A stretch of DNA of 64,000 nt. It comes from Clostridia bacterium (GTDB lineage Bacteria > Bacillota > Clostridia > UMGS1840). The notes under the pieces were generated by a model that saw nothing but the letters and a program-made list of their open reading frames with translations, searched no databases and had not been told where the DNA came from. The translations under genes were made by a program, and so were the position numbers. The first letter of the stretch is position 1. Each line of letters starts with the position of its first letter. The stretch covers positions 142,326 through 206,325 of the forward strand of contig JAZQKB010000037.1 in the NCBI GenBank assembly GCA_045541975.1, written 5' to 3'. This document shows, one piece after another, positions 34,440-50,860 of this stretch.

Positions 34440-35234
34440 ATGGCTATGATGAACGAGTACGAAATCAAAAAAGAAATGTGTGAAGTCGGCAGAAGAATTT
34501 ATATGAACGGCTTCGTTGCCGCTAACGACGGTAATATTACAGTAAAAATTTCCGACAATGTATTTTTTGCAACTCCCACCGGTGTATCCAAGGGTTATAT
34601 GACTCCTGATATGATCATCAAGGTTGACGGAGAAGGTAAAGTCCTGGAAGGAAAATTAAAACCCTCCAGCGAATTAAAAATGCATTTAAGAGTATATAAA
34701 GAAAGACCTGACGTAAGAGCAGTTGTGCATGCACATCCGCCCACAGCTACCGGTTTTGCAATTGCAGGTGTTCCGCTGGATAAATACACCATGCCGGAAG
34801 CAATCATTTTCTTAGGTACTGTTCCGATTGCAAAATACGGTACTCCTTCTACCGATGAAATTCCGGATGCAGTTTCCGAACACTTACAGAGCTATGATGC
34901 CTTCTTACTGGAAAACCATGGTGCATTAACCGTTGGTAACTCCTTAATGAATGCATACTTCAAAATGGAAACCTTAGAATTTTATGCAAAGATTTCCTTA
35001 AATGCAAGATTATTAGGTGGTGAACAGGAATTAACCTGTGACCAGATTGATAAACTGATGCAGGTGAGAGCTGCATTTAAAGTACCCGGCAAACATCCCG
35101 GTTGCAAAAAATGCGAAAAGAACGGAACTCCCGAATGTAAAGAAGCACAGAGACTGGCTAAAAAAGAAGATAACCCGGATGCTGCTCTGGTTGCAGAAAT
35201 TACTCAGAAAGTTCTGGCAGCAATGGGTAAATAA
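34440..35234 (+). CDS. Class II aldolase (L-fuculose/rhamnulose-1-phosphate aldolase-like) with C-terminal extension
   Basis: It has the class II aldolase/adducin fold (AANDGNITVK, SSELKMHL, VVHAHPP, LLENHGALTVG). A ~50-aa tail follows, with CKKCEKNGTPEC and the amphipathic DAALVAEITQKVLAAMGK. ATG 34440 is 9 nt after AAAGGGG. Confidence 0.85.
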   Translation: MAMMNEYEIKKEMCEVGRRIYMNGFVAANDGNITVKISDNVFFATPTGVSKGYMTPDMIIKVDGEGKVLEGKLKPSSELKMHLRVYKERPDVRAVVHAHPPTATGFAIAGVPLDKYTMPEAIIFLGTVPIAKYGTPSTDEIPDAVSEHLQSYDAFLLENHGALTVGNSLMNAYFKMETLEFYAKISLNARLLGGEQELTCDQIDKLMQVRAAFKVPGKHPGCKKCEKNGTPECKEAQRLAKKEDNPDAALVAEITQKVLAAMGK

Positions 35235-35324
35235 TTCAATTGCTACACTATTATATATAATAGAAAGGAAAGGTCTGACCGGAATACCGTTTGTATTTTC
35301 GTAGGACAAAGATGGTGAACACTT

Positions 35325-36989
35325 ATGCGATCTAACCGATTTAAAGTGCTGGGGCAAAGACCTGTCCATCAAGATGGGTTCATGAAGGAATGGGAAGAAG
35401 TTGGCTTTGTTGCCATGGATTCCAAGTATGATCCAAAGCCCTCTTTGAAAATCGAAAACGGTATCATCGTGGAAATGGACGGCAAGCGTCGGGAAGAGTT
35501 TGACTTTATCGACAGCTTTATCGCAGACCATGCCATCGACTTATCTGTTGCAGAAAAAGCAATGGCGATTGACAGTTTACAGTATGCCAGAGATTTGTGC
35601 GATATTAACACCGATAATAAAGAATTAAAGAAGCTGTTCTCCGGTTTGACCGCTGCAAAGCTGAAGGAAATCATGAATCACATGAATGTGGTTGAAATGA
35701 TGATGGCGATGCAGAAAATGAGAGAAAGAAAAACACCTTCCAACCAATGTCACGTCACCAACTTAGACGATAACCCGGTGCAGATTGCCTGCGATGCCGC
35801 AGAAGCAACCTTCCGAGGTTTTGACGAAACCGAAACCACCGTAGGGATTGCCCGGTATGCACCCCTTTGCGCAGTTGGTCTTTTCATCGGATCTCAGGTT
35901 GGTCGTCCTGGCGTTCTGTCTCAGTGTGGGGTAGAAGAAGCTGTGGAATTAAAACTTGGTATGAAAGGGTTTACCACCTATGCGGAAACCATTTCCGTAT
36001 ACGGTACCGAGAAAGTATTTATTGACGGGGATGACACGCCCTATTCTAAAGCATTTTTAGCATCTGCTTACGCTTCCCGTGGCATGAAGATGCGCTGCAC
36101 CTCCGGTACAGGCTCTGAAGTTTTAATGGGAAATGCGGAAAAGAAATCCATGCTTTATCTGGAAATCCGTTGTCTTCTGGTTATTAAAGGTGCAGGCGTT
36201 CAGGGTACTCAGAACGGTGCAATCAGTTGTATCGGTATCACCGGCTCTGTGCCTTCCGGTATTCGTTGTGTGTTAGCGGAAAATTTAGTTGCCGCTCAGC
36301 TTGGTTTGGAGGTTGCCTCCGGTAACGACCAGACCTTCTCTCACAGTGATATCAGAAGAACGGCAAGAATGCTGATGCAGATGCTTCCCGGAACAGACTT
36401 TATCTTCTCTGGGTATAGCTCCATCCCCAACTACGACAATATGTTTGCCGGTGCGAACTTTGATGCAGAGGATTTTGATGACTACAATGTTCTTCAACGT
36501 GATTTGAAAGTGGACGGCGGTCTTCGTCCCGTATCGGAAGAAGATGTGATCCGTGTTCGTATGAAAGCAGCAAAAGCTGTTCAGGCAGTGTTTGCCTGCT
36601 TAGGATTCCCCAAAGTTACGGACGAACAGGTAGAGCAGGCTGTTTACGCTCACGGCAGTAAAGATATTACTGCAAAACGTAACGTTAACGAAGATCTTGC
36701 TGCTGCACAGAAGTTAGTTGACGGCGATATCACCGGGGTAGACATTGTGCAGGCACTGAATAATTCAGGCTTTCACGATGTGGCAGTTGCAGTATTTAAT
36801 ATGTTAAAACAGCGTTTATCTGCTGACTATCTGCAAACTGCTTCCATTTTAAATGACCAGTTTGAAGTGTTAAGCTCGGTGAACCATCCCAATGATTATA
36901 ACGGTCCCGGTACCGGTTACCGTGTTTCCGGCGAACGTTGGGAAGAAATTAAAAATATTAAGGATACCTTAGATCCTACCGCTATTTAG
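35325..36989 (+). CDS. pduC: B12-dependent diol (propanediol) dehydratase large subunit
   Basis: It is 554 aa. The N-terminus MRSNRFKVLGQRPVHQDGFMKEWEEVGFVAMDS and the full-length pattern match PduC/PddA. Confidence 0.95.
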   Translation: MRSNRFKVLGQRPVHQDGFMKEWEEVGFVAMDSKYDPKPSLKIENGIIVEMDGKRREEFDFIDSFIADHAIDLSVAEKAMAIDSLQYARDLCDINTDNKELKKLFSGLTAAKLKEIMNHMNVVEMMMAMQKMRERKTPSNQCHVTNLDDNPVQIACDAAEATFRGFDETETTVGIARYAPLCAVGLFIGSQVGRPGVLSQCGVEEAVELKLGMKGFTTYAETISVYGTEKVFIDGDDTPYSKAFLASAYASRGMKMRCTSGTGSEVLMGNAEKKSMLYLEIRCLLVIKGAGVQGTQNGAISCIGITGSVPSGIRCVLAENLVAAQLGLEVASGNDQTFSHSDIRRTARMLMQMLPGTDFIFSGYSSIPNYDNMFAGANFDAEDFDDYNVLQRDLKVDGGLRPVSEEDVIRVRMKAAKAVQAVFACLGFPKVTDEQVEQAVYAHGSKDITAKRNVNEDLAAAQKLVDGDITGVDIVQALNNSGFHDVAVAVFNMLKQRLSADYLQTASILNDQFEVLSSVNHPNDYNGPGTGYRVSGERWEEIKNIKDTLDPTAI

Positions 36990-37057
36990 AATTTAAAAGA
37001 AAGGATTAGTGCATTTTTACTTTTATAAAATTGAATAAAAATGTATGTGGTATCAGT

Positions 37058-37714
37058 ATGGAATATAATGAACAGTTAATTAAAGAAGTCACCAGGCAGG
37101 TAATGGCAGCAATTCAGAATGCTGAAGCAATGCCGGAACCAGTGAAGACCGTTTCTTCCTCCAACGGAAAACGGCTACAGATTACTGAAGAAGGCGATGC
37201 TCCCAAAGGTGTGAGCCCTTCTGAAGTAGTAATCGGGCTCGGTGCTTCCTTTTCTAAAGATATGTTTGAAACCATGTCGGGTGTGAGCCATTATGATTTG
37301 GTCCGTGAAATTGCAGCAGGGGTTGAAGAAGAGGGGATGACTCCTCGATTCATCCGTGTGTATCATACATCGGATGTTGCCTTTATCGCTTTGACTGCGG
37401 CAAAATACTCCGGTTCCGGCATCGGTGTGGGTATTCAGTCCAAAGGAACCACCACCATTCATCAGAAGGATTTATTCCCGCTGACGAATCTGGAACTGTT
37501 TCCCCAGGCACCGCTGATTACGTTGGAAATTTACCGTAAAATCGGTAAAAACGCAGCACGTTATGCCAAAGGTCAGTCTCCGGAGCCAATCAGCGTGATG
37601 AATGACTGTATGGTGCGTCCGAAATTCCAGGCGAAAGCGGCTTTGCTTCACATTAAGGAAACCGAAAATGTGGTAGATAAGAAACCGCCTGTCGCATTAA
37701 AAATTGAATTTTAA
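37058..37714 (+). CDS. pduD: Diol dehydratase medium subunit
   Basis: The core GVGIQSKGTTTIHQKDLFPLTNLELFPQAPL is typical. The N-terminus MEYNEQLIKEVTRQVMAAIQ parallels the Salmonella PduD targeting peptide, so I prefer ATG 37058 to TTG 37031. Confidence 0.92.
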   Translation: MEYNEQLIKEVTRQVMAAIQNAEAMPEPVKTVSSSNGKRLQITEEGDAPKGVSPSEVVIGLGASFSKDMFETMSGVSHYDLVREIAAGVEEEGMTPRFIRVYHTSDVAFIALTAAKYSGSGIGVGIQSKGTTTIHQKDLFPLTNLELFPQAPLITLEIYRKIGKNAARYAKGQSPEPISVMNDCMVRPKFQAKAALLHIKETENVVDKKPPVALKIEF

Positions 37715-37726: not shown

Positions 37727-38344
37727 ATGGATGTAAATATTTCTGAAATTGTAAAAGCTGTTGCCGAAAAAATTCAGGCAGAAACAGGAAACGGCGGGAT
37801 TTCAAGCAAAGAAATCAATGATATCTTACAAAAGATTGAAACTCCAAAACCGAAAAAAGCAGAGAAAACTCCGGATGAAATTGCGGATGAGTTAACAAAA
37901 AAAGTTCTTCGTGATATGAAGGGCGGCGGTACTTCCTTCAAAAAAGGAACTTACACTTATCCTTTAGCAAAAAATCATCCCGATTTGTTAAAATCCAAAA
38001 CCGGAAAATCTTTTTCTGAAATCACATTTGAAAATCTGATTCAGGGAAAAGTGACTCACGAGGATTTTAAAACTAACCGTGAAACTCTGTTGATGCAAGC
38101 GGAAATTGCCGAAAAAGCCGGCAAAAAACAGTTTGCAGGCAATATGAGAAGAGCAGCAGAATTAACAGCTGTTCCTGATGATGAAGTGCTGAAAATTTAC
38201 GATAAGCTCCGTCCCAATCGGGCAACCAAACGGGAGCTTTTGGATATTGCAGATCACTTAAGAAGCGATTATCAGGCGAATATTACTGCAGCATTCATTG
38301 AAGAAATTGTTGCGGTATACGAAAAGCGAAATATTCTGTTATAG
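37727..38344 (+). CDS. pduE: Diol dehydratase small subunit with extended N-terminus
   Basis: The core YPLAKNHPDLLKSKTGKSFSEITFENL...RAAELTAVPDDEVLKIYDKLRPNRATKRELL is typical. The N-terminal helix is MDVNISEIVKAVAEKIQ. Confidence 0.92.
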   Translation: MDVNISEIVKAVAEKIQAETGNGGISSKEINDILQKIETPKPKKAEKTPDEIADELTKKVLRDMKGGGTSFKKGTYTYPLAKNHPDLLKSKTGKSFSEITFENLIQGKVTHEDFKTNRETLLMQAEIAEKAGKKQFAGNMRRAAELTAVPDDEVLKIYDKLRPNRATKRELLDIADHLRSDYQANITAAFIEEIVAVYEKRNILL

Positions 38345-38371: not shown

Positions 38372-40225
38372 ATGGCGATTCGTGACGTTGTTGCTGGTGT
38401 TGACATCGGAAACTCCACTACCGAAGCAGTTCTGATGAACATTCGGGACGGCCATTGTGATTTTCTCTCCTATGCGATGATTCCTACTACCGGCGTAAAA
38501 GGAACTCGCGAAAATAAAACCGGTGTGATTGCAGCCTTGAAACAAGGCGCAAAAGATGCCGGACTTAGTCTTTCAGATATCGGTGAGGTGCTGATTAACG
38601 AAGCAACTCCCGTCATCTCCGAATTATCCACCGATGTAATCTCTCAAACCACTATTATCGGCTCTGTAATGATTGGGCACAACCCCGACACTCCCGGCGG
38701 TAACGGTATTGGAGTGGGATTTACCCACGATGTGAGAAGCTTGCATCTTTGCAACCGTAGTGATGACTATATCGCTGTGGTTGATGCCACTGTGGACTTC
38801 GAGGAAGCGGCAAGCTATGTAAACCGTGCTATTGATGACGGAATCTCCGTTACGGGGATGATCTGCAAAAAAGATGATGGTGTGCTGATTGCGAACCGTC
38901 TTAATGTAACTTTGCCCATTGTGGACGAGGTTATGCAGATTGAAAAAATTCCGTTTGGAAAATTAGCAGCGATTGAAGTTGCCTCTGAATCAGGCACTAT
39001 TAAAGTGCTATCCAATCCTTATGGGATTGCAGGAATTTTCAAATTGACGCCGGAGGAAACCAAAAGCGTCATCCCAATTTCCAAGAGTTTAATCGGACTT
39101 CGGTCCGGCGTTGTCATCAACAATGATGAAGGCGGCGTTAAAACTCAGGAAATTCCGGTTGGTAATATTTATATTTACGGAACCGGCGGTGATTTCAGTG
39201 TTCCTGTTTCCCAGGGTGCCGATAAAATAACCGAAACGGTGTTAAAAAGCGGCGATATTTTTGATATTGCCGGTGAAAAAAACACCAATACGGGAAACTC
39301 CTTTGAACGGATTAAACGCCGCATGGCAGATTTAACCGGTCAAATGGCAGATTCCATTAAAATATCCGACCTTTCCGCAACTGATACCTTAGCGCCAATG
39401 AAGGTGTCTGGCGGTTTGGCGAATGAATATGCGATGGAAAGCGTGGTTATGCTTTCTTCCATGGTAAAAACCTCTCATCTTCCTATGAAACAGATTGCCG
39501 ACGTGGTAACCGATGAAATCGGTGTTGACGTTTCGATCATGGGAAAAGAGGCAGATAACGCAATTATCGGTGCGTTAACAACATCAGGTGCAGATACACC
39601 GTTAGCGATTTTAGACTTAGGCGGCGGCTCCACCGATGCTGCTCTGATGGACAAATCCGGCAATATCAAAAGTGTGCATACTGCAGGAGCAGGGGAGATG
39701 GTTACCACCATCATTGACTTAGAACTTGCTCTTTCCGACCGTGACACGGCGGAACTGATTAAGCGGTATCCCTTGGCAAGGGTGGAAACCTTCAATATGC
39801 TTCGCTTTGAAGACCAAACAGTGAAGTTTACAAAAGATCAGTTACCTCCTGAGCTATATAAACGGGTTGTTATTCTCACCGAAGATAAAATGATTCCTAT
39901 CCGGAAAAAGAATCTGACAATGGAGCAGATTGCTGTAATCCGAAAGGAAGCCAAACGAAAAGTATTTGTGCAAAATGCGCTGAAGGCGTTAACCAAAATT
40001 GCTCCTGAAGGAAACTTAAGAAATATTCAGTTTGTGGTTATGGTTGGCGGAAGTGCTTTGGACTTTGAAGTGCCCGACCTCATCAATGAGGCACTCTCAA
40101 AATATAATATTGTGGCAGGACGCGGAAATGTGCTGGGTAAATTCGGACCCCGTGCCGCAGTTGCTGCAGGACTGGTGTTAAGCCAGTATTCCAAACAGAT
40201 GAGATTGGGAGGTGAGAACGTTTGA
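38372..40225 (+). CDS. pduG: Diol dehydratase reactivase large (alpha) subunit
   Basis: It is 617 aa. The N-terminus VAGVDIGNSTTE and the ILDLGGGSTDAA motif (ASKHA fold) are typical of PduG/DdrA. Confidence 0.92.
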   Translation: MAIRDVVAGVDIGNSTTEAVLMNIRDGHCDFLSYAMIPTTGVKGTRENKTGVIAALKQGAKDAGLSLSDIGEVLINEATPVISELSTDVISQTTIIGSVMIGHNPDTPGGNGIGVGFTHDVRSLHLCNRSDDYIAVVDATVDFEEAASYVNRAIDDGISVTGMICKKDDGVLIANRLNVTLPIVDEVMQIEKIPFGKLAAIEVASESGTIKVLSNPYGIAGIFKLTPEETKSVIPISKSLIGLRSGVVINNDEGGVKTQEIPVGNIYIYGTGGDFSVPVSQGADKITETVLKSGDIFDIAGEKNTNTGNSFERIKRRMADLTGQMADSIKISDLSATDTLAPMKVSGGLANEYAMESVVMLSSMVKTSHLPMKQIADVVTDEIGVDVSIMGKEADNAIIGALTTSGADTPLAILDLGGGSTDAALMDKSGNIKSVHTAGAGEMVTTIIDLELALSDRDTAELIKRYPLARVETFNMLRFEDQTVKFTKDQLPPELYKRVVILTEDKMIPIRKKNLTMEQIAVIRKEAKRKVFVQNALKALTKIAPEGNLRNIQFVVMVGGSALDFEVPDLINEALSKYNIVAGRGNVLGKFGPRAAVAAGLVLSQYSKQMRLGGENV

Positions 40226-41172
40226 TATATACCAAAAAAGGAGACGAAGGATATTCCGGAAACTTAAAAAACATCCGCTATCCTAAGGATTACATCTTAT
40301 TTGATTTACTTGGTACCATCGACGAGCTCTCATCTCATTTAGGACTTGCCAAAACAGAATCTATTGAAGTGGTTTGTGATACCATAACAGCTTTGCAAAA
40401 AGAATTTATCCTGCTGATGGGTTTTATTGCAGGCGGTGATCACTTCGATACCAAACAGGCAACCGGCCGGTTAGAAAAACTGATTGATGCCTTTTCGGCA
40501 AAAATCACCCGTGACGGAAAATTCACTATCAGCGGACAGACTAAGGGCGGTGCGCACTTAGATGTGGCTAGAACAGTTGCCCGTCGGGCAGAGCGAGAAG
40601 CGGTAAAAGCCTCCAAACTGTTTTTGGTGAAAAAAGAGGACTTGTCCTACTTTAACAGACTGTCCGATTTGCTCTATGTGTTGGCAAGATATCAGGATCA
40701 GCTCTATGTACCAAAAGATGAAAAAATAATTGTATATGATAAACCAAGCGATGGCACGTTTAACATGAAACTGGCAGAAAAGCTTTGCCAGACAGTAATC
40801 AGCCGTGCCAGAGAAATGGGAGTCAAGGTTGTGTGTGCTGTTTGTGACGGTGGCGGAAACCTGATGACCATGCTCCGTGATGATGATGCCTATATTGCAA
40901 GCATCAATGTTGCACAAAACAAGGCATACACGGCAGTCAGCTTAAAAATGCCCACAGAAACTTTAGCAGGACTTACCAAGCCTGGTGATTCTCTCTATGG
41001 CATCCAGCATCAGGACAGCCGTCTTGTAGTGTTTGGCGGAGGAATCCCCCTCATTATTAATGACGTGATCGTGGGTGGCTTTGGTGTTAGTGGCGGAAGC
41101 TTAGAGCAGGATACCGCACTGGCAGCATATGCGAAAGAAATTTTTGGGAAGTTTACAAACTCGAATGAATAA
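40222..41172 (+). CDS. pduO: PduO-type ATP:cob(I)alamin adenosyltransferase fused to a GlcG/DUF336 domain
   Basis: The N-domain is IYTKKGDEGYS...LYVLARY. The C-domain, VCAVCDGGGNLMTMLRDDDAYIASINVAQNKAYTAV...GGFGVSGGS, is DUF336. TTG 40222 overlaps the pduG stop. Confidence 0.88.
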   Translation: MIYTKKGDEGYSGNLKNIRYPKDYILFDLLGTIDELSSHLGLAKTESIEVVCDTITALQKEFILLMGFIAGGDHFDTKQATGRLEKLIDAFSAKITRDGKFTISGQTKGGAHLDVARTVARRAEREAVKASKLFLVKKEDLSYFNRLSDLLYVLARYQDQLYVPKDEKIIVYDKPSDGTFNMKLAEKLCQTVISRAREMGVKVVCAVCDGGGNLMTMLRDDDAYIASINVAQNKAYTAVSLKMPTETLAGLTKPGDSLYGIQHQDSRLVVFGGGIPLIINDVIVGGFGVSGGSLEQDTALAAYAKEIFGKFTNSNE

Positions 41173-41191: not shown

Positions 41192-42637
41192 ATGAACGAA
41201 CAACAAATTGCAAGCATTGTTGAACAGGTAATTAAAGGAATGGCCGCAAAAGGTGCCGCTCCGAAAGCATCCGGTAAATATAAAGGTGTTTTCTCCACCA
41301 TGGAAGAAGCAATTGAAGCGGCAAAAACAGCCTACAAACTGTTCCGCAGCTATTCTTTGGAACAGAAAGAAAACATGATTACCAAAATCAGAGAAAAAAT
41401 TATGGCAGAAGCCGAAACCATGGCAAAAATGGGCGTGGAAGAAACCGGCATGGGCAGAGTGACTGATAAAATTATCAAACACACTCTGGTTGCTCAGAAA
41501 ACTCCCGGTACTGAAGATCTGCAGCCCAGAGCATACAGCGGTGATACCGGCTTAACTCTGGTAGAAATGGCTCCCTTTGGATTAATCGGAAGTATTACGC
41601 CTACCACCAACCCCTCCGAAACCGTTCTTTGTAACTCCATCGGGATGTTAGCAGCAGGAAACTGTGTAATTTTTAATCCCCATCCGAGAGCAATCAACAC
41701 TTCTAACTATGCAGTTGACTTGATCAACCGTGCAGTATTGGAAGCTGGCGGTCCGGAAAATGTGGTTGTATCTGTAACCAAACCTACTTTAAAAACTGCT
41801 GACGCTATGATTAAATGCCCTGACGTAAAACTGTTAGTGGCAACCGGTGGTCCCGGTGTTGTAAGAACACTGTTATCCTCCGGGAAAAAAGCAATCGGTG
41901 CCGGTGCAGGGAATCCGCCTGTAATTGTTGATGAAACTGCCGACATCAGAAAAGCAGCCAAAGATATCGTTGCAGGTGCAAGCTTTGATAACAACCTGCC
42001 TTGTATCGCTGAAAAAGAATGTTTCGCAGTTGCAAGCATTAAAGATGAGCTGATTCATTATATGACTCAGAACGGCGCGTATCTTTTGACCAAACAGTCT
42101 GATATTGATAAATTGGTAAAAGTTGCGTTAACCGAAGAAGAATGCAAACAGGGTGAAGGTTGCTCCGACAGAGCAAAACGTAAACTGATGCTTAATAAAG
42201 ATTGGGTAGGCAAAGATGCAAATCTCTTCTTAGAAGCAATCGGTATTACCGATGCTCCCAAGGATACCCGTTTGATCATCTGTGAAACCACCGAAGATCA
42301 TCCCTTCGTATCAGAAGAACTGATGATGCCGATTTTACCCATCGTGTCTGTAAAAGATGTAGACGAAGCAATCCGTCTGGGTGTAAAATACGAACACGGC
42401 AACCGTCACAGTGCTCACATGCATTCTAAAAACATTGATAACTTAACCAAATTTGCAAGAGAAGTGGAAACCACAATCTTTGTAAAAAATGCACCTTCCT
42501 ATGCAGGCATTGGTGCAGGCGGAGAAGGACACACCACCTTCACCATTGCAGGTCCTACCGGCGAAGGTATCACCTCCGCAAGAAGCTTCACCCGTCAGAG
42601 AAGATGCGTTCTGGTGGATGGCTTCAGAATCATTTAG
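41192..42637 (+). CDS. pduP: CoA-acylating (propion)aldehyde dehydrogenase
   Basis: It belongs to the EutE/PduP family (TPTTNPSETV, catalytic NNLPCIAEKE). ATG 41192 follows AAAGGAAAGGA. The N-terminal helix is MNEQQIASIVEQVIKGM. Confidence 0.9.
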   Translation: MNEQQIASIVEQVIKGMAAKGAAPKASGKYKGVFSTMEEAIEAAKTAYKLFRSYSLEQKENMITKIREKIMAEAETMAKMGVEETGMGRVTDKIIKHTLVAQKTPGTEDLQPRAYSGDTGLTLVEMAPFGLIGSITPTTNPSETVLCNSIGMLAAGNCVIFNPHPRAINTSNYAVDLINRAVLEAGGPENVVVSVTKPTLKTADAMIKCPDVKLLVATGGPGVVRTLLSSGKKAIGAGAGNPPVIVDETADIRKAAKDIVAGASFDNNLPCIAEKECFAVASIKDELIHYMTQNGAYLLTKQSDIDKLVKVALTEEECKQGEGCSDRAKRKLMLNKDWVGKDANLFLEAIGITDAPKDTRLIICETTEDHPFVSEELMMPILPIVSVKDVDEAIRLGVKYEHGNRHSAHMHSKNIDNLTKFAREVETTIFVKNAPSYAGIGAGGEGHTTFTIAGPTGEGITSARSFTRQRRCVLVDGFRII

Positions 42638-42673
42638 TGAAAAATCTACTATATAGAAATGAGGGTTCGTAAG

Positions 42674-43897
42674 ATGGAAATGAACGAAAAAGCGATTGAA
42701 TCAATCGTAAAACAAGTTTTAACCAACTTAAACGGCGGCTCTGACTGTAGCTGTGGTGGAAACTGTACTTGCGGAAAATCTGCAGGTCCCATCCCCAAAA
42801 CTGCAAAAGCTGCAATGCTCACCTCTTTGGAGCATTATGATATCAAAGAGTTTCCCATTCCCGAGCTTGGTGATGATGATATCTTAGTTAAAGTAGAAGG
42901 CTGTGGTATCTGCGGAACTGATGCTCACGAATTTAAACGTGATCCTTTCGGCTTAATTCCTGTTGTGTTAGGTCATGAAGGCACTGGCGAAATCGTGAAA
43001 ATGGGTAAAAACGTGAAAAAAGACAGCGCTGGCAAAGCTTTAAAATTGGGTGACAAAGTTGTTACCTGTATGATCTTTAAAGATGACCCCAACATCACCA
43101 TGTTTGACTTAAACAAACAGAATGTTGGTGACGGTGCAGATGTTTACGGTTTGATTCCTGATGATGATATTCATCTGAACGGTTGGTTTGCCGATTATAT
43201 GGTAATCAGAGGCGGTTCCACTGTATTTAATGTAAGTGATCTGGACTTAGAAAGCAGAATTTTAATCGAACCTGCTGCAGTTTTAATTCATGCTGTAGAA
43301 CGTGCGAAAACTGTTGGTATCTTAAGATTTAACAGCCGTGTGGTTGTTCAGGGTTGCGGACCGATTGGTCTGTTATGTATTGCAATTCTGCGCACCATGG
43401 GCGTTGAAAACATTGTTGCAGTAGACGGTGAAGAAAAGAGATTGGCTTTCGCCAAAGAAATGGGCGCAACCAAATCTGTAAACTTCAAAAACCATAAAGG
43501 TATTGAAGAATTAACCGAAGCTGTGAAAGATGCATTCGGCGGTTACTATGCTGACTTTGCATTCCAGTGTACCGGTTCTCCCATCGCTCACTCCAACGTA
43601 TACAAATTCGTAAGAAAAGGCGGCGGTTTGTGTGAACTTGGCTTCTTCATCAACGGTGGAGATGCTACCATCAACCCCCACTTTGACATTTGCGCAAAAG
43701 AACTGACTGTTGTTGGTTCCTGGGTATATACCTTACGCGATTATGCAACCACCTTCGATTTCTTAAAAAGAGCTCAGGGTATCGGTTTACCGATTAAAAA
43801 GCTGATTACTCACAAGTATCCGCTTTCCCAGATCAACGAGGCTCATCAGACCAATCTGAAGATGGAAGGCTTAAAAATCGCCATCATCAATGAATAA
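42674..43897 (+). CDS. Zinc-dependent MDR alcohol dehydrogenase with N-terminal targeting-like helix
   Basis: It has GICGTDAHE and VLGHEGTGE catalytic zinc motifs and a GCGPIGL Rossmann motif. The N-terminal extension is MEMNEKAIESIVKQVLTNLNGGSDCSCGGNCTCG. ATG 42674 is 8 nt after GAGGG. Confidence 0.85.
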   Translation: MEMNEKAIESIVKQVLTNLNGGSDCSCGGNCTCGKSAGPIPKTAKAAMLTSLEHYDIKEFPIPELGDDDILVKVEGCGICGTDAHEFKRDPFGLIPVVLGHEGTGEIVKMGKNVKKDSAGKALKLGDKVVTCMIFKDDPNITMFDLNKQNVGDGADVYGLIPDDDIHLNGWFADYMVIRGGSTVFNVSDLDLESRILIEPAAVLIHAVERAKTVGILRFNSRVVVQGCGPIGLLCIAILRTMGVENIVAVDGEEKRLAFAKEMGATKSVNFKNHKGIEELTEAVKDAFGGYYADFAFQCTGSPIAHSNVYKFVRKGGGLCELGFFINGGDATINPHFDICAKELTVVGSWVYTLRDYATTFDFLKRAQGIGLPIKKLITHKYPLSQINEAHQTNLKMEGLKIAIINE

Positions 43898-43930: not shown

Positions 43931-44431
43931 ATGAATGCATTGGGAATGGTTGAGGTTTACGGTTTCACCACCGCAATCGTTTGTGCCGATGCTGCAGCAA
44001 AAGCAGCGGCGGTAAACATCATTGCGCTGGATACCACAAAACCTGCCAACGGCGACAGCGCGGAAGTTCCCTTGGTAATGATTGTGAAAATGGAAGGCTC
44101 CGTTTCTGCAGTATCTGCAGGTGTTGCAGCGGCAAAAGCACAGGCGGAACAACGAGGACTCTACATTGTTTCACACATCATTTCCCGTCCGGGTCCTGAC
44201 ATTGAAAAACTTGCATTCTTAAGCAAGGTAGGAAATGAACCAATTGGGAAAAAATCCGTCAAAAAAGAAGTAAAAGAAACAAAAGAAGAACCGGTCAGCG
44301 AAAAAACTCCTGCAGTTACCGAAGCAGAAACTGTAGAAGAAAAACCGGTAGCGAGCGCTCCTAAAAAACGGGGACGTCCCGCAAAAGCGAAACCCGCTGA
44401 AAATCCCGACCAGCAAAAAATCGGGGAATAA
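43931..44431 (+). CDS. BMC-H shell protein with long K/E/P-rich C-terminal tail (PduK-like)
   Basis: It has a single Pfam00936-type BMC domain (ALGMVEVYGFTTAIVCADAAAKAA). A ~75-aa low-complexity tail follows and contains KKRGRPAKAKP. Confidence 0.85.
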   Translation: MNALGMVEVYGFTTAIVCADAAAKAAAVNIIALDTTKPANGDSAEVPLVMIVKMEGSVSAVSAGVAAAKAQAEQRGLYIVSHIISRPGPDIEKLAFLSKVGNEPIGKKSVKKEVKETKEEPVSEKTPAVTEAETVEEKPVASAPKKRGRPAKAKPAENPDQQKIGE

Positions 44432-44483: not shown

Positions 44484-44762
44484 ATGAATTTTGAAGCATT
44501 AGGAATGGTTGAAACCAGAGGTTTAGTAGCTGCAATCGAAGCAGCTGATGCAATGGTAAAAGCAGCTAACGTTACCTTAGTTGGTACCGAAAAAATCGGT
44601 TCCGGTTTAGTAAGCGTTATGGTTAGAGGCGATGTTGGTGCAGTAAAAGCTGCTACCGAAGCTGGATCTCAGGCAGCTGCAAGATTAGGCGAAATCGTTG
44701 CTGTACACGTAATTCCCAGACCCCATGGCGATGTTGAAAAAATCTTACCTGAACTGAAGTAA
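44484..44762 (+). CDS. pduA: BMC-H shell protein, PduA/PduJ type (copy 1)
   Basis: [27 protein letters not shown]...KIGSGLV...[10 protein letters not shown] is the canonical hexamer sequence. It is 92 aa. Confidence 0.93.
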
Positions 44763-44846: not shown

Positions 44847-45119
44847 ATGGAAGCAGTAGGCTTATTGGAAGTGCAGGCTTTGGCTGCCGCAATTGAAGGC
44901 TTAGACGCTATGCTCAAGGCTGCCAACGTGAGACTGGTTCATATTGAACGCCGTCTTGGCGGTCGATTGGTGACCATGGTTGTTGCAGGAACAGTTTCTG
45001 CAGTCACTTCCGCAGTAGAAGCCGGACGGACGGCTGCCGCCCGTATCGGCAATGTGAAATGTTGTGAAGTAATTGCAAGACCTCATAGTGAGGTTACCAA
45101 ATTCTTCACCGATTTCTAA
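44847..45119 (+). CDS. BMC-H shell protein, divergent (Arg-containing pore loop)
   Basis: It has a BMC domain (AVGLLEVQALAAAIEGLDAMLKAANV), but the pore loop is RRLGGRL rather than KIGSGL. It is more GC-rich than its neighbours. Confidence 0.85.
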   Translation: MEAVGLLEVQALAAAIEGLDAMLKAANVRLVHIERRLGGRLVTMVVAGTVSAVTSAVEAGRTAAARIGNVKCCEVIARPHSEVTKFFTDF

Positions 45120-45167: not shown

Positions 45168-45446
45168 ATGAACTTTGAAGCATTAGGAATGGTTGAAACC
45201 AGAGGTTTAGTAGCTGCAATCGAAGCAGCTGATGCAATGGTAAAAGCAGCTAACGTTACCTTAATCGGTACTGAAAAAATCGGTTCCGGTTTAGTAAGCG
45301 TTATGGTTAGAGGAGACGTTGGTGCAGTAAAATCTGCTACCGAAGCTGGCGCTGAAGCTGCTGCAAGACTGGGCGAAATCGTTGCTGTTCACGTTATTCC
45401 GAGACCGCACGGTGATGTAGAAAAAATTCTGCCCCAGATTAAATAA
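45168..45446 (+). CDS. pduJ: BMC-H shell protein, PduA/PduJ type (copy 2)
   Basis: It shares 86/92 aa with copy 1. ATG 45168 follows GGAGG. Confidence 0.93.
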
Positions 45447-45617: not shown

Positions 45618-46289
45618 GTGGAAATTTTGGAACGTGAAAAAATTGTTAGTGAAGTTGTAAAACAAGTATTAGCAATGTATAAACAAAAAGAAAGTGCACC
45701 TGTAACGCAGGTGGATGATTCTGAGATTAAGGTTGGAGTATCTCAGCGTCATATTCATTTATCCCAGGAAGACTTGGAAAAGCTCTTTGGCAAAGGTTAT
45801 GAATTAACGATGTTAAAGCCTTTAATGGGGAAAGAATATGCTGCCAAAGAGGTTGTAACTTTAGTTGGAAAATCCCTAAAATCGATCGAAAATGTTCGTG
45901 TTTTGGGACCTGTTAGAAAAAATACCCAGGTTGAAATTTCAAGAACAGACACCTTTGTATTAAAAGTAAGTCCTCCGGTTCGTCCTTCCGGCGAAATCAA
46001 AGGATCTGAACGTCTGGTTGTGGTAGGGCCGAAGGGAGCCATCTACTTAGATGAAGGCGTTATTATTGCAAACCGTCATATTCATATGACTCCGGAAACC
46101 GCACGAAAATTCGGTGTAACCGATAATTCTTTGGTAGACGTGGAAATTGACGGCGTAAAACCCACCAAATTTTTTGATGTGCAGGTTCGTGTGCGTGACG
46201 ATTTCAACACCGAAATGCATATTGATACTGACGACGCAAACTCCGCAGGATTAAAGAACGGAGATAACGTAAGAATCATCTCCAGATAA
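45618..46289 (+). CDS. pduL: Phosphate propanoyltransferase
   Basis: It has two PduL repeats with GVSQRHIHLS and IANRHIHM motifs. GTG 45618 follows GAAAGG. The N-terminal helix is EKIVSEVVKQVLAMY. Confidence 0.9.
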   Translation: MEILEREKIVSEVVKQVLAMYKQKESAPVTQVDDSEIKVGVSQRHIHLSQEDLEKLFGKGYELTMLKPLMGKEYAAKEVVTLVGKSLKSIENVRVLGPVRKNTQVEISRTDTFVLKVSPPVRPSGEIKGSERLVVVGPKGAIYLDEGVIIANRHIHMTPETARKFGVTDNSLVDVEIDGVKPTKFFDVQVRVRDDFNTEMHIDTDDANSAGLKNGDNVRIISR

Positions 46290-46319: not shown

Positions 46320-46577
46320 ATGGTAGTAGGAAAAGTTACTGGTTCTATTTTCTCCACCCGCAAGTTAGACAGCCTCACCGGTTCTAAACTGATGGTGGTA
46401 AACATCGGCAAAGGAAAGGACGATTTCGTGGTTGCCATTGATACCTTAGGTGCAGGCATCGGCGAAGTGGTTCTTGTAACCATGGGTGACAGTGCAAGAT
46501 TTGCTTGTCAGAATGAAAAAACTCCCGTTGATGCAGTAATCGTGGGCATTGTGGATGAATCTAACTATAATCAGTAA
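46320..46577 (+). CDS. pduN: BMC-P pentameric vertex protein (EutN/PduN)
   Basis: MVVGKVTGSIFSTRKLDSLTGSKLMVV...DTLGAGIGEVVLV is EutN/CcmL family. It is 85 aa. Confidence 0.92.
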   Translation: MVVGKVTGSIFSTRKLDSLTGSKLMVVNIGKGKDDFVVAIDTLGAGIGEVVLVTMGDSARFACQNEKTPVDAVIVGIVDESNYNQ

Positions 46578-46627
46578 TTCGTTTTTTAAAAGCGAGTATA
46601 GTTGCTTTATAAAAGGAATTGAATTTG

Positions 46628-47944
46628 ATGATGCAAACCTTAAAAGAATTGATACAAAAAGCCGGTGTGGTCGGTGCCGGCGGAGCGGGTTTTCCCACTC
46701 ATGTAAAATTAGCTGATAACATTGAAACTATTTTAATTAATGGGACCGAGTGTGAGCCTCTTTTAAAAACTGACTTTTATTTGCTGTGTGAAAAACGAGA
46801 CCGTTTAGAATCTGCTTTAGAAGCTTTGGTGGAACAAACCGGTGCTAAAAACGGTGTCATCGGTATTAAAAAACATACAGCAGAATTACTTGGAATGACC
46901 GAAGAAACTACCCGTGGTAAGATTTCTTACCGGTTTACCGGCGATGTTTATCCGTCCGGTGACGAAGTGGTTTTAATTCAGGAAACCTTAGGGAAAACTG
47001 TTCCCGGTGGACGACTTCCCATTTCAGTTGGCGTTGTGGTGATGAATGTGGAAACACTTTATAACGTTGCTAACGCTTTAGAGGAAACTCCTGTAACTCA
47101 TAAATTTGTAACAATTGCCGGAAAAACGCCAAAAACTTATGTGTTGAACGTTCCGGTGGGAACACCTGTTTCCCATATTTTTGACAGCCTGAACATTGAA
47201 GTTCCCCAAAATTGCTCTGTGTTAGACGGCGGTCCGATGATGGGAAGTATGATTAATCCGAAAACCGCAGTTGTTACCAAGACAACTAAAAGTCTTTTGG
47301 TCATTGAAGATCATACCCTTTGTATCCGTTTAAAAACCAGAAGTTTGGCAGATGCATTGCACCGTTCCTCCGGGAATTGTTGCGGATGCAGAATGTGTAC
47401 GGATATGTGTCCCCGTTATTTGATGGGGTATCCCATTGAACCTCATAAAATTGTGCAGAGATTATCTGCTAAAGCTTCCGACACCAAAACCTTCATGGGT
47501 GCATTTTATTGCTCAAATTGCGGTGTTTGTCAGACCATTGCCTGTCCGCAAAATATCAGTCCCAACCGCTTATTTGCCCGTGTGAAAGCGGAGCTTTTAA
47601 AGAATGGTGTGAAAGCCGGTATGATGGAAGAATCGACTCCCATTGCAGAACGGGTTTATCGCAGAGTTCCCAGCAAACGGTTAGTAAATCGGTTAGGCGT
47701 TTTGAAATATTATCGGGATGAATATGAGTTTACACAAATTCCAGAACCAAAACAAGTAACGCTTCCCTTAAAACAGCATATCGGTGCTCCCGGGGAAGTA
47801 ATTGTGAAAGTTGGTGATTCGGTGACGGTTGGTCAGCTCATCATTCAGCCGAAAGAAAATGCACTTGGTGCCAATATTCACAGCTCTGTGAACGGTACGG
47901 TGTCTTCAGTCAGCGAATCCTGTGTTGTGATTACCGTTGGTTAA
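46628..47944 (+). CDS. pduS: PduS-like cobalamin reductase (RnfC/NuoF-like flavo Fe-S protein)
   Basis: It has GVVGAGGAGFPTHVK and two 4Fe-4S motifs, CCGCRMCTDMCP and CSNCGVCQTIACP. The start is ambiguous (46619, 46625 or 46628). Confidence 0.88.
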   Translation: MMQTLKELIQKAGVVGAGGAGFPTHVKLADNIETILINGTECEPLLKTDFYLLCEKRDRLESALEALVEQTGAKNGVIGIKKHTAELLGMTEETTRGKISYRFTGDVYPSGDEVVLIQETLGKTVPGGRLPISVGVVVMNVETLYNVANALEETPVTHKFVTIAGKTPKTYVLNVPVGTPVSHIFDSLNIEVPQNCSVLDGGPMMGSMINPKTAVVTKTTKSLLVIEDHTLCIRLKTRSLADALHRSSGNCCGCRMCTDMCPRYLMGYPIEPHKIVQRLSAKASDTKTFMGAFYCSNCGVCQTIACPQNISPNRLFARVKAELLKNGVKAGMMEESTPIAERVYRRVPSKRLVNRLGVLKYYRDEYEFTQIPEPKQVTLPLKQHIGAPGEVIVKVGDSVTVGQLIIQPKENALGANIHSSVNGTVSSVSESCVVITVG

Positions 47945-47971: not shown

Positions 47972-48520
47972 ATGATGGTATCCATTGGAATTATTGAAGT
48001 GAGTAACATTGCAAAAGGTTATTTCATTTGTGACAATATTTTAAAAAAATCACAGGTTTCCATGGTGATGGCGCAGCCCATCTGCCCCGGAAAATTTGTG
48101 ATGATTTTTGGTGGAAGCATGTCATCAGTTCATATTGCCTGCGAATATGCCCAAACCAATTTTGCCGATAAAATTTTAGATATTTCTGAGTTTGGCAATA
48201 TTGATGTCCGGGTATTTGATGCCTTAAACGGTGCCGCAAGCGGTGAAACCAGCGGTGCGCTTGGCATTATTGAAACCTTTTCCGTTGCATCTTGCATTTT
48301 GTCTGCGGATGCTGCCTTAAAAGCTGCAGCTGTGGAAATCTGTGAGCTTCGTGTGGCACGAGGCATGGGTGGTAAATCCTATGTGGCATTATCCGGCACT
48401 GTTGCGGCAGTTACCGCAGGGGTAGAAGCCGGTGCTCAGTTTGCTATTGAAAACGGTATCTTAAACGATACTGCTATTATTCCGTCTCCCCACGAGGATT
48501 TGTGGCAATATTTACAATAA
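47972..48520 (+). CDS. pduT: BMC-T tandem-domain shell protein, PduT-like
   Basis: It has two fused BMC domains in 182 aa. Cys38 in PICPGK sits at the position of the PduT pore 4Fe-4S ligand. Confidence 0.85.
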   Translation: MMVSIGIIEVSNIAKGYFICDNILKKSQVSMVMAQPICPGKFVMIFGGSMSSVHIACEYAQTNFADKILDISEFGNIDVRVFDALNGAASGETSGALGIIETFSVASCILSADAALKAAAVEICELRVARGMGGKSYVALSGTVAAVTAGVEAGAQFAIENGILNDTAIIPSPHEDLWQYLQ

Positions 48521-48533: not shown

Positions 48534-48575
48534 TAGGCTTTAAAATGATGATTCCACTTTAAAGCCTATTTCATT
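48534..48575 (+). terminator. Terminator closing the BMC operon
   Basis: The stem TAGGCTTTAAA / TTTAAAGCCTA has a 13-nt loop and is followed by TTTCATT. The T-tract is weak. Confidence 0.6.
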
Positions 48576-48612: not shown

Positions 48613-49371
48613 TTGTTTGCATTAGAACGAAGAAAACGCATCTTAGAGCTTTTAAATCAGAATGGAAGTGTTCTGGTAAACGATTTAAGCCGTGATTTAG
48701 AAGTTACGGTAGAAACTATCCGTCGAGACTTAGAAAAGCTGGAGCAAAATGAACAGCTTACCCGTACTCACGGTGGCGCCGTTCCTTTTGAAGAATCTAA
48801 TATGGATTTATCCTTGGAAAAACGGCGCGGTTTAAATATTGAAGGGAAAATCGCTATTGCTAAAAAAGCGGTTAATCATATTCGTCCCGGTGATACCATC
48901 TTTTTAGACGGTTCTACCACTTCCTATTACTTATCCAAGCAGTTAAAAGATATGAAAAATATCACCATTATCACCAACAATTTGCAGATTTTGGAGGAGT
49001 TGTCCAATTGCGATAAATTGAAGGTGATTTCTACTGGTGGTGTTTTGGATGTGAACAACCAGTCTTTTGTTGGTGAAGTTGCCGTGGATAATATCAACAA
49101 AAATTTCTGTGCCAACAAAATGTTTTTCAGTAGCAAAGGGATGACAATGGAGCAGGGCGTTTTAGAATCCAACGACGTGGAGTTTCAGATTAAACGTGCC
49201 ATGCTAAACAATGCAATGACAAAATTTTTACTGTTGGATAAATCTAAACTGGAAAAAGTTGGCTTTATTAAACTCAGTAATTTTGCAGAAATTGATATGC
49301 TCTTTACCGATGAAGAATTATCCGATGAATGGAAAAAAGTATTGAAAAAGAACAAAGTGACTGTAGAATAA
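48613..49371 (+). CDS. DeoR family transcriptional regulator
   Basis: It has an N-terminal HTH (ERRKRILELLNQNGSVLVNDLSRDLEVTVETIRRDLEKLE) and a DeoR C-terminal sugar-phosphate sensor domain. TTG 48613 follows GGAGGTG. Confidence 0.9.
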   Translation: MFALERRKRILELLNQNGSVLVNDLSRDLEVTVETIRRDLEKLEQNEQLTRTHGGAVPFEESNMDLSLEKRRGLNIEGKIAIAKKAVNHIRPGDTIFLDGSTTSYYLSKQLKDMKNITIITNNLQILEELSNCDKLKVISTGGVLDVNNQSFVGEVAVDNINKNFCANKMFFSSKGMTMEQGVLESNDVEFQIKRAMLNNAMTKFLLLDKSKLEKVGFIKLSNFAEIDMLFTDEELSDEWKKVLKKNKVTVE

Positions 49372-49390
49372 ATCTAAGGAGGAAAAAACT

Positions 49391-50860
49391 ATGAGCAAAA
49401 ACGTATTAGCATTTGATTTTGGGGCTTCCAGCGGAAGAGCTATTATCGGTAATTATGATAACAATAAAATCACCTTAAAAGAAGTGCATCGTTTTCCAAA
49501 TGATCCCGTATTTGTTGGTGGAACTTTGTATTGGGACGTACTTCGTTTATTATTTGAAATCAAACAGGGTATCTTAGCTGCACATCATAATGGCGGTTTT
49601 GACAGTATCGGTATTGATACTTGGGGTGTAGACTTTGGTCTTTTAGATAAAGATGGCAGACTTTTGGAAAATCCTGTTCACTACCGTGATACCAGAACGG
49701 ATAACATTATGGAAGAAGTGTTCCAGATTGTTCCCAAAGAAGAAATCTATCAGAAAACCGGCACACAGTTTATGTCCTTTAATACCTTGTTCCAGCTTTA
49801 TTACCTGGCAAAATACCGTAAGGATTTGTTAGACCGTGCAGACTGTTTCTTACTGTTTCCTGATTTATTGGCATATTTCTTAACTGGTGAAAAAACCGTG
49901 GAATATACCCATGCTTCCACTACCCAGTTAGTCAATGCCGAAACCAGAGAATGGGATTTTGATCTGATTGATAAATTAGGTATCCCCAGACGGTTATTTC
50001 CGAAAATTGTAAAACCGGGTACCAAAAAAGGCATGCTTTCCAAAGAAATTTGCGATGAATTAGGTGTTCCTTCCGTTCCCGTTTGTGCAGTTGGTTCTCA
50101 TGATACTGCTTCTGCAGTTATGGCTGTTCCTTCTGAAAAAGAAGACTTTATCTATATCAGCTGCGGAACCTGGTCTTTATTCGGTACTGAAGCCAAAGAA
50201 CCTTATATCAACGAAAAATCTCAAAAATATAACCTGACCAATGAAGGCGGTTACGATAACACCATCCGTTTCTTAAAAAATATTATGGGTCTGTGGCTCA
50301 TTCAGGAATCCAGACGCCAGTGGATCCGTGAAGGCTTTGCCGTAACTTACGGAGACTTGGAAAAAGAAGCATTAGCTGAAGATGCTTTCAAATGTTTTAT
50401 TGATTCTGATTATCCCAAATTTGGGAAACCCGGTAATCTTCCCCAGTATATTAAAGATTACTGCAAAGACACTAACCAGTTTGTTCCTGAGAGACGTGGG
50501 GAAGTAATGCGTTGTATTTATGAAAGCTTAGCTTTAAAATATCGCTACGCTTTTGAAAATATTCAGGATGTTACCGGCAAAAAATACGAAGTGATTCATA
50601 TTGTTGGCGGCGGAACTAAGGATAATCTGTTGTGTCAGATGACTGCAAACTCTTGTGGGGTTGATGTTGTGGCAGGCCCCATCGAAGCAACTGCTTTGGG
50701 TAATGTTGCTGCTCAGCTAATTGCAGGCGGCGATATCAAAGACTTAAAAGAAGCCCGTCAGATTATTAAAAATTCTGAAACTACCACCACCTACAAACCG
50801 CAGGATGTGGATGCGTGGGACAAAGCATATTCTAAATTTTTAAAACTGGATATTCAGTAA
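49391..50860 (+). CDS. rhaB: Rhamnulokinase
   Basis: It is FGGY family. The N-terminus LAFDFGASSGRAIIG...VHRFPNDPV...GTLYWDV is typical of RhaB. Confidence 0.85.
   Translation: MSKNVLAFDFGASSGRAIIGNYDNNKITLKEVHRFPNDPVFVGGTLYWDVLRLLFEIKQGILAAHHNGGFDSIGIDTWGVDFGLLDKDGRLLENPVHYRDTRTDNIMEEVFQIVPKEEIYQKTGTQFMSFNTLFQLYYLAKYRKDLLDRADCFLLFPDLLAYFLTGEKTVEYTHASTTQLVNAETREWDFDLIDKLGIPRRLFPKIVKPGTKKGMLSKEICDELGVPSVPVCAVGSHDTASAVMAVPSEKEDFIYISCGTWSLFGTEAKEPYINEKSQKYNLTNEGGYDNTIRFLKNIMGLWLIQESRRQWIREGFAVTYGDLEKEALAEDAFKCFIDSDYPKFGKPGNLPQYIKDYCKDTNQFVPERRGEVMRCIYESLALKYRYAFENIQDVTGKKYEVIHIVGGGTKDNLLCQMTANSCGVDVVAGPIEATALGNVAAQLIAGGDIKDLKEARQIIKNSETTTTYKPQDVDAWDKAYSKFLKLDIQ

Follow-up and report, generated by a model that had tools for sequence, protein, structure and literature searches.

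Gene content and organization of the locus

The subject of this analysis is a bacterial microcompartment (BMC) locus at positions 34440-50860 of a 64,000-nucleotide stretch of contig JAZQKB010000037.1 from a Clostridia bacterium; we refer to the whole 64-kb stretch as the window. The locus comprises 18 genes, all on the + strand and all with intact open reading frames (ORFs), as judged from the ORF listing and from scans with NCBIfam and Pfam models. Their order is class II aldolase, PduC-D-E, PduG, PduO, PduP, Zn-dependent alcohol dehydrogenase (Zn-ADH), four BMC-H shell proteins, PduL, BMC-P, PduS, PduT, a DeoR-family regulator and a rhamnulokinase, which reproduces gene by gene the content and order given in a first-pass annotation made from the sequence alone.

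The first gene (34440..35234) encodes an aldolase of the FucA/RhaD family with 264 residues (PF00596, 173 bits). Its closest relatives in the PDB are L-fuculose-1-phosphate aldolases, with about 30% identity to the solved FucA structures. In an alignment of 31 homologues, residues E78, H97, H99 and H160 are invariant; they correspond to the zinc ligands and the catalytic glutamate of FucA-type aldolases. Compared to free FucA enzymes, which have 207-222 residues, the protein is extended at its C-terminus by about 50-55 residues. In the same alignment, this extension consists of a conserved cysteine motif (PGxHPGCxKC…GTxxC), a linker that differs in length and sequence, and a conserved terminal helix (LVAEITKKVLA), which forms the C-terminal end ALVAEITQKVLAAMGK of the window protein. 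We read this succession of cysteine motif, linker and helix as the anatomy of a BMC encapsulation peptide (EP).

The aldolase is followed by the three subunits of a B12-dependent diol dehydratase: the large subunit PduC (35325..36989; NF011979, 951 bits against a cut-off of 788), the medium subunit PduD (37055..37714, counted from the likely ATG of an ORF that opens at 37031; NF011616, 290 bits against 248; N-terminus MEYNEQLIKEVTRQVMAAI) and the small subunit PduE (37727..38344, within an ORF from 37718; NF011972). PduE obtains 182 bits with this diol dehydratase model, compared to 109 with the DhaB3 model of glycerol dehydratase; for PduC and PduD, NCBIfam does not separate the two enzymes. 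PduE also has an N-terminal extension of about 80 residues, and its alignment to E. coli PduE starts at residue 81. Next come PduG, the alpha subunit of the diol dehydratase reactivase (38372..40225; TIGR04491, 791 bits against 400), and PduO, a two-domain adenosyltransferase (40222..41172; PF01923 and HbpS/DUF336, the N-terminal domain with 110 bits against 108). The stop of pduG at 40225 overlaps the start of pduO at 40222, leaving no room for pduH. With the RnfC-like, PduS-type flavin/iron-sulfur oxidoreductase further downstream (46619..47944; PF01512, PF13534, PF13375), PduG and PduO form a cobalamin recycling set.

The core enzymes downstream of PduO are a PduP-type CoA-acylating aldehyde dehydrogenase (AldDH; 41192..42637; NF011927, 700 bits against 403), whose ORF opens at 41129 and whose likely ATG follows an AAAGGAAAGGA ribosome-binding site, and the Zn-ADH (42659..43897; PF08240 and PF00107), which has an EP-like helix at its N-terminus as well as a Cys-rich linker and is predicted to act as lactaldehyde reductase and propanol dehydrogenase. 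Among the four BMC-H proteins, the second (44484..44762; EutM model, 132 bits) and the fourth (45168..45446, within an ORF from 45153) are PduA/J-like and share 79% and, from 45168, 78% identity with E. coli PduA; the third (44847..45119) is a divergent protein recognized by BMC models. The first (43931..44431; PF00936) has 166 residues, of which about 60 form a K/E/P-rich tail after the BMC domain, with the AT-hook-like end PKKRGRPAKAKP. This tail is lineage-specific, because homologues in other loci align over residues 1-105 only. The remaining genes of this part encode the phosphate propanoyltransferase PduL (45618..46289; NF011652, 246 bits against 209; N-terminus EREKIVSEVVKQVLAMYK), a BMC-P vertex protein of 85 residues (46320..46577; CcmL and EutN models) and a PduT-type BMC-T(s) shell protein with a pore cysteine in the motif PICPGK (47972..48520; TIGR02526). 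Every shell ORF of the locus is thus BMC-H, BMC-P or PduT. The rhamnulokinase RhaB (49391..50860) scores just above the cut-off of its model (TIGR02627, 529.4 bits against 527.95).

A sigma-70-type promoter, TTGACA-17-TATAAT, lies at 34367..34395 on the + strand, 45 nt upstream of the aldolase ATG, and is the sole 12/12 match in 33400-51400. The 90-nt spacer between aldolase and pduC contains neither a promoter-like nor a terminator-like site, so that nothing points to independent transcription of the aldolase, whose only strong promoter is shared with pduCDE. The terminator that the first-pass annotation had placed after pduT did not hold up: the interval between pduT and deoR contains an AT-rich hairpin (48534..48568) with a 15-bp stem, four G-C pairs and a poor T-run, which might be a weak terminator, an attenuator or an operator. 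The strong intrinsic terminator (50875..50907; 14-bp stem, six G-C pairs) is located after the kinase and is common to the convergent gene. We therefore take the genes from the aldolase to RhaB to form a single operon, since there is one 12/12 promoter in front of the aldolase, no terminator before 50875, and all gene junctions are short or overlapping. The operon is probably controlled by the DeoR-family regulator (48613..49371; AgaR, GlpR and FucR models), and the adjacency of PduT and DeoR is also found in Lachnospiraceae-type loci of the GRM5 class discussed below. The GC content of the operon is 0.42-0.45, compared to about 0.40 in its flanks.

Comparison with catalogued microcompartment types

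GRM5 is a class of glycyl radical enzyme-associated microcompartments (GRM) for fucose and rhamnose, with members in Clostridium phytofermentans, Roseburia inulinivorans and Ruminococcus (Petit 2013, Axen 2014, Zarzycki 2015, Ferlez 2019, Sutter 2021). Every GRM locus is defined by a glycyl radical enzyme (GRE; PF01228/PF02901) and its activating enzyme (AE; PF04055) (Ferlez 2019, PMC6325248). Searches with GRM5-type GRE and activase by tblastn gave no match in the 64 kb, and the locus has no ORF of fitting size, so that by this definition it is not a GRM.

Outside the signature cassette, however, the gene order is that of GRM5, and so are the host class (Clostridia), the DeoR regulator and the presence of both a PduP-type AldDH and PduL. 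The shell set of four BMC-H and one BMC-P, with PduS adjoining PduT, agrees with the GRM5 description in the catalogue of Sutter et al. 2021. The predicted lactaldehyde reductase of GRM5 is a PF08240/PF00107 Zn-ADH (PMC6325248; see also the pathway model in PMC4207490), and the Zn-ADH of the window shares 80-85% identity with its counterpart in Lachnospiraceae-type GRM5 loci. The entry enzyme of GRM5 is likewise a pfam00596 aldolase with a C-terminal EP, and the window aldolase shares 57-66% identity with those of GRE-bearing loci. Over the core proteins AldDH, ADH, PduL, BMC-P and PduT, identity to GRM5-type loci ranges from 44 to 85%. The differences are, besides the missing GRE and activase, the presence of PduCDE and PduG between aldolase and PduO, and a PduO that is a full-length adenosyltransferase, whereas the Lachnospiraceae-type GRM5 loci we compared have the DUF336 domain alone.

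Propanediol utilization (PDU) loci of type PDU1 include PDU1AB of Salmonella and E. coli and PDU1C-F of Firmicutes. For the comparison with them, the pdu operon of E. coli strain Q5 served as PDU1AB reference; the E. coli locus initially chosen was dropped, as it proved to be a dha glycerol-dehydratase regulon. The window has the PDU1 signature enzyme PduCDE, whose families PF02286/PF02287/PF02288 are the identifying Pfams of PDU1 (Axen 2014, PMC4207490), as well as PduG, PduO, PduP, PduL, PduS and PduT, and its PduA/J-like BMC-H proteins are 74-79% identical to those of PDU1. Identity to the E. coli proteins is 64% for PduC, 50% for PduD and 49% for PduE, and drops to 45% for PduP, 44% for PduL, 34% for PduT and 31% for PduO. 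In contrast, GRM5-type loci reach 62-76% for PduP, 53-71% for PduL and 44-48% for PduT; for BMC-P they reach 48-59%, and E. coli PduN is not matched at E≤1e-3. When E. coli pdu proteins were searched against the window with tblastn, PduB, PduH, PduK, PduM, PduQ, PduU and PduV had no counterpart. Instead of the Fe-ADH PduQ there is a Zn-ADH, the locus has an aldolase and a kinase besides and, with PduB and PduQ missing, it lacks several defining features of PDU1.

The third type to be considered is the microcompartment of Planctomycetes and Verrucomicrobia (PVM), which with its PVM-like forms occurs in these two phyla and in some Firmicutes. It resembles the window locus in its DeoR regulator and in a homologous pfam00596 entry aldolase for fuculose- or rhamnulose-phosphate. 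Yet PVM loci lack a diol dehydratase, whereas the window has PduCDE, and the single BMC-P next to four BMC-H and a Zn-ADH sets the locus apart from them.

The locus is best read, on these comparisons, as a B12-dependent counterpart of GRM5 with a shell and core of GRM5 type. Its PDU-type parts are PduCDE and PduG together with the adenosyltransferase half of PduO; everything else matches GRM5. The earlier description of the microcompartment as PDU-type can accordingly be kept for these parts and has to be given up for shell and core. No catalogued type with this content came to light: the PDU1 and GRM5 descriptions in the consulted catalogue sections lack it, and those of PDU1AB, PDU1C, PDU1D and PDU1E make no mention of an aldolase (Sutter et al. 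2021).

Recurrence, cassette slot and history of the arrangement

Homologues of the aldolase were traced to their contigs and their alignment was scanned against one genome per species, which yielded 586 confirmed relatives; the best 80 were kept, and the window proteins were mapped onto their loci with tblastn. Members of this aldolase family usually occur within the GRM5 architecture, together with AldDH, Zn-ADH, four BMC-H, PduL, BMC-P, PduS, PduT and, somewhere, a GRE and its activase. In ten of the 80 best species-level loci, however, the aldolase is directly followed by PduC: L005, L007, L010, L012 (Clostridium methylpentosum DSM 5476), L017, L019, L049 (Bianquea renquensis NSJ-32), L056 (a metagenome-assembled genome, MAG, of Ca. 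Epulonipiscium), L060 (C. disporicum) and L073 (Vallitalea maricola). The same pair occurs in L001 and L002, which brings the number of independent assemblies to at least 12, and this order is shared by three more, short metagenome contigs (L087-L089), to which the 99%-identical aldolase P0001 led. An exact-sequence look-up of the window PduC returned no record.

This recurrence bears on the possibility that the locus is an assembly or binning artefact, or that it is decaying and non-functional. Such a suspicion could be raised by the fact that the closest relatives are MAGs and that pduH is missing, but the order recurs in the isolates C. methylpentosum DSM 5476, B. renquensis NSJ-32, C. disporicum and V. 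maricola as well as in independent metagenome contigs, L005 has the same gene order with 86% DNA identity to the window over 11 kb, and the 18 intact ORFs have family-level scores. An assembly artefact was rejected on account of the isolate genomes, and we regard this explanation as a whole as having next to no chance of being correct.

In C. methylpentosum and in L010 the operon reads deoR (in opposite orientation), rhaA, rhaB, ackA, aldolase, pduCDE, pduG, pduO, pduP, ADH and shell genes, and therefore holds rhaA and ackA, the genes without a counterpart in the window. C. methylpentosum has been reported to ferment only methylpentoses and some pentoses, with propionate and propanol as products. 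From aldolase through PduCDE, PduG, PduO, PduP and Zn-ADH to BMC-H, its order equals that of the window. The proteins, however, are only 44-74% identical, the window has no rhaA or ackA upstream but deoR-rhaB downstream, and its 3' block derives from another lineage, of Lachnospiraceae type. Together with the shared promoter, the C-terminal helix of the aldolase and the recurrence in at least 12 assemblies, the C. methylpentosum operon upholds the central claim of the first-pass annotation, that an aldolase/kinase front end is joined to the B12 enzyme set in one BMC operon.

The novelty implied by that claim is weaker than it seemed. The arrangement in C. methylpentosum was already remarked on by Ravcheev et al. 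2019 (PMC6620236), and in the supplement of Sutter et al. 2021 the tree entries for shell proteins from C. methylpentosum, from C. grantii and from a Ruminococcus MAG are tagged 'PDU1D_GRM5 (omitted)'; these loci likewise combine a B12 dehydratase with fucose/rhamnose BMC genes. In that study, compound labels denote initial locus-type categories that could not be resolved, and 'omitted' sequences were dropped in later iterations of locus scoring. The B12-type aldolase BMC thus recurs in Clostridia. It has come up in two earlier publications as a side remark, yet it was never given a name, entered in a catalogue as a type of its own or investigated; it fills a gap in the published taxonomy of BMCs, which had left such loci out because they could not be resolved. 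New here are the slot shared by PduCDE-PduG and GRE-AE, the full-length PduO in some GRE loci and the switch of nearest neighbours at pduG/pduO, all three described in the following.

In otherwise syntenic operons, PduCDE-PduG and GRE-AE fill one slot between aldolase and PduO. This slot, which is followed by PduO-PduP-ADH throughout, contains PduC, D, E and G in the window, L005, L010, L012, L017, L001, L002 and L007, GRE and AE in L021, L024, L027, L040 and L048, and nothing in L009, L011, L013 and others. In further loci GRE-AE is located after PduT (L003, L008, L016 and others) or, in the Lachnospiraceae type, upstream of the aldolase (L066, L067, L078 and others). At the level of sequence, these arrangements show that the radical-enzyme cassette has been exchanged repeatedly within one chassis, in a direction that is not proven. 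The loci show that radical enzymes of two unrelated kinds, each served by separate maintenance machinery, can replace one another at one site of an otherwise conserved operon; a parallel is the PDU1AB/GRM4 pair pointed out by Sutter et al. 2021.

We also observed that L009, L011, L013, L033, L036, L039, L047, L054 and L063 contain aldolase, full-length PduO, AldDH, Zn-ADH, shell, PduS and PduT, with neither PduCDE nor GRE in the range fetched, which for L013 extends about 1.5 kb beyond PduT. In these loci the dehydratase may be encoded elsewhere, or the organelle may end at propanediol or lactyl-CoA.

To follow the history of the chassis, we computed a neighbor-joining tree, which is distance-based, from concatenated aldolase, AldDH and ADH of 58 loci (1103 columns, 200 bootstraps). 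Monophyly of the B12-type loci was rejected, as it appeared in 0 of 200 replicates. The window and L005 nest among Lachnospiraceae-type GRM5 loci and the dehydratase-less relatives we call O-type (96% support), and L010 sits across a split among GRE loci that has 100% support. Along the window operon, the nearest neighbors of aldolase, PduC, PduD and PduG are mostly B12-type loci (L002, L007, L017, L012; 52-75% identity), although the two closest to the aldolase, L035 and L014, do not belong to this type. For PduO and the genes after it, the nearest neighbors are the non-B12 loci L054, L063, L065, L071 and L079, with 66% identity for PduO compared to at most 47% to B12-type loci, and 80-85% for ADH compared to about 52%. 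The switch falls on the overlapping junction of pduG and pduO. By these comparisons the window operon is a mosaic with a history of module swapping, composed of a 5' part (aldolase-PduCDE-PduG) and a 3' block (PduO-RhaB). The PduC sequences form two groups, one PduH-less (window, L002, L007, L017, L001, L010, L012) and one comprising L049, L073, L056 and L060, of which only L049 and L073 were found to have a PduH between PduG and PduO.

Axen et al. 2014 (PMC4207490) posed the puzzle that GRM loci, which are devoid of a cobalamin enzyme, retain genes for PduO, DUF336 and PduS. In L024, the PduO behind GRE-AE is a full two-domain adenosyltransferase (PF01923, 151 bits, and an HbpS-like domain) in a locus that has no cobalamin enzyme, and L066 retains the HbpS/DUF336 domain alone. 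A full adenosyltransferase beside a GRE would most simply be a relic of a B12 predecessor, and the loci can be arranged in a graded series from aldolase-[PduCDE-G]-PduO through aldolase-[GRE-AE]-full PduO and GRE with the DUF336 half to GRE without PduO. We suggest, tentatively and with more doubt than confidence, that the B12 aldolase BMC is an ancestral or repeatedly recurring state of GRM5 in which GRE-AE replaced PduCDE-PduG in situ several times. If true, this would answer the puzzle of the cobalamin-associated genes in GRM loci and make the radical signature enzyme a hot-swappable cassette in a fixed chassis of shell and core.

Proposed pathway and alternative explanations

In our reading, the locus probably encodes one catabolic BMC condensing the lower half of L-rhamnose (possibly also L-fucose) fermentation, in which a GRM5-family chassis has a B12 dehydratase in place of the GRE. 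The locus has one shell set, one AldDH and one phosphotransacylase, which speaks for one organelle. The steps of the pathway are proposed on the basis of the protein families and of the models published for GRM5 and PDU. RhaB would phosphorylate rhamnulose in the cytosol, and the encapsulated aldolase would split the resulting rhamnulose-1-phosphate into dihydroxyacetone phosphate and L-lactaldehyde, which the encapsulated Zn-ADH would reduce with NADH to 1,2-propanediol. PduCDE would convert this to propionaldehyde and PduP the propionaldehyde to propionyl-CoA, regenerating NADH. As PduP would return the NADH used by Zn-ADH, the lumen would be redox-balanced. Surplus propionaldehyde could be reduced to 1-propanol by the ADH, PduL would form propionyl-phosphate from propionyl-CoA, and a kinase encoded elsewhere would use it to generate ATP. 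PduG, PduO and PduS/PduT would reactivate the dehydratase and re-adenosylate its cobalamin.

EP-like amphipathic helices are found at the N-termini of PduD, PduE (two, within its extension), PduP, Zn-ADH and PduL. The motif h-xx-hh-xx-hh-xx-h, with polar spacers, occurs at four of the six cargo termini and, one residue off, at the other two, compared to none of the 52 other proteins of the window; it was chosen post hoc and is used as supporting evidence only. A first, over-specified regular expression for EPs was dropped, as it matched PduP alone and four hydrophobic, probably membrane, segments.

If the aldolase and the kinase were instead cytosolic and merely co-regulated, the locus would encode an ordinary 1,2-propanediol BMC, with propanediol made outside, as in Salmonella and Listeria, and diffusing in. 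This agrees with the lack of an EP-like terminus in the rhamnulokinase, with the view of Ravcheev et al. 2019 (PMC6620236) that co-localized PduCD and aldolase BMC genes couple two pathways functionally and do not make up one organelle, and with Listeria, in which cytosolic rhamnose catabolism is coupled to a B12-dependent PDU BMC (PMC8386454). The aldolase, however, ends in a helix conserved across homologues from BMC loci, at the tip of an extension of about 55 residues that free FucA lacks, and the Zn-ADH, which would have to make the propanediol, has an N-terminal EP-like helix as well. Aldolases of pfam00596 with C-terminal EPs have moreover been described for several BMC types, among them ACI and SPU5, and the family also occurs in PVM and GRM5 (Sutter et al. 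2021). We therefore consider a cytosolic front end unlikely.

A second alternative accepts the encapsulated aldolase and assumes PVM-like chemistry, in which lactaldehyde is disproportionated within the shell to 1,2-propanediol and lactyl-CoA or lactate, and PduCDE only scavenges external propanediol or glycerol. This pathway has been favored for aldolase BMCs (Erbilgin 2014; Ravcheev 2019, PMC6620236), in the O-type relatives aldolase, AldDH, ADH and shell occur with no dehydratase within reach, and PduC and PduD could by their NCBIfam scores belong to either dehydratase. But in the shared operon PduCDE lies immediately 3' of the aldolase, EP-like helices are present on both PduD and PduE, the cofactor-recycling set of PduG, PduO and PduS is complete, and PduE scores higher with the diol model, all of which makes this chemistry quite improbable here.

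Several observations weigh against a single B12-dependent rhamnose compartment. The substrate of the aldolase, rhamnulose-1-phosphate or fuculose-1-phosphate, is a prediction that can be made at the family level only, because the enzyme scores below the cut-off of every named NCBIfam equivalog, and the EPs of the aldolase and the other cargo are equally predicted. The interpretation that Ravcheev et al. 2019 gave to PduCD next to aldolase BMC genes differs from ours, and the literature searched contained no experimental study of a B12 aldolase BMC. The absence of an isomerase and a propionate kinase, noted from the start, was confirmed by tblastn, which found no homologue of rhaA or of an acetate/propionate kinase in the 64 kb; nor does the window contain a rhamnose transporter or genes for B12 synthesis or uptake. 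The flanks of the operon, searched for rhaA, fucI, fucO, pduW and B12 synthesis or uptake, yielded only chromosomal housekeeping genes. An Rfam scan of the whole 64 kb gave nothing that reached the gathering score, and hence no cobalamin riboswitch near the operon. The known reactivase is an alpha2beta2 complex, and pduH is absent: neither PduH of the E. coli pdu operon nor GdrB of an E. coli dha glycerol-dehydratase regulon had a tblastn match in the window. Without PduH, reactivation may be impaired or different in mechanism. Most B12-type relatives likewise have no space for pduH, the PduH-like ORFs of L049 and L073 being noted above.

In Clostridia of gut and sediment, fermentation of the deoxy sugars fucose and rhamnose, with propionate and propanol as products, is a major route, and whether the dehydratase is B12-dependent or B12-independent decides if this route needs cobalamin, a shared and often limiting cofactor. 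For engineers, this type of locus would be an instance, provided by nature, of cargo being exchanged while the shell stays the same. The chemistry we propose is predictable from known modules and should surprise specialists only moderately; more interest attaches to the series of cassette swaps and to the mosaic junction.

Two cargo enzymes have Cys-rich segments adjoining their EP-like helices: PGKHPGCKKCEKNGTPEC at residues ~216-235 of the aldolase (35080-35150), which is kept in the 31 homologues, and SDCSCGGNCTCGK at residues ~27-40 of the Zn-ADH (42725-42775). These segments could be metal or redox sites.

Upstream of the operon and divergent from it, genes for an extracytoplasmic function (ECF)-type sigma factor (186 residues) and for a further protein of 189 residues lie on the - strand (32738-34052). 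They are conserved beside the operon in L005 and in the metagenome contigs L087-L089, and may form a regulatory pair. Synteny with L005 stops about 2 kb upstream of the aldolase. The stretch 30000-34000 has a low GC content (0.31-0.35) and includes a DUF4041/T5orf172 (GIY-YIG-like) gene at 30436-31716. On the other side, at 50907-53158 on the - strand, genes for a class-V aminotransferase/cysteine-desulfurase-like protein, a Se/S-carrier-like protein and a PP-loop ATPase converge on the operon terminator; they probably form a thiolation or selenation system.

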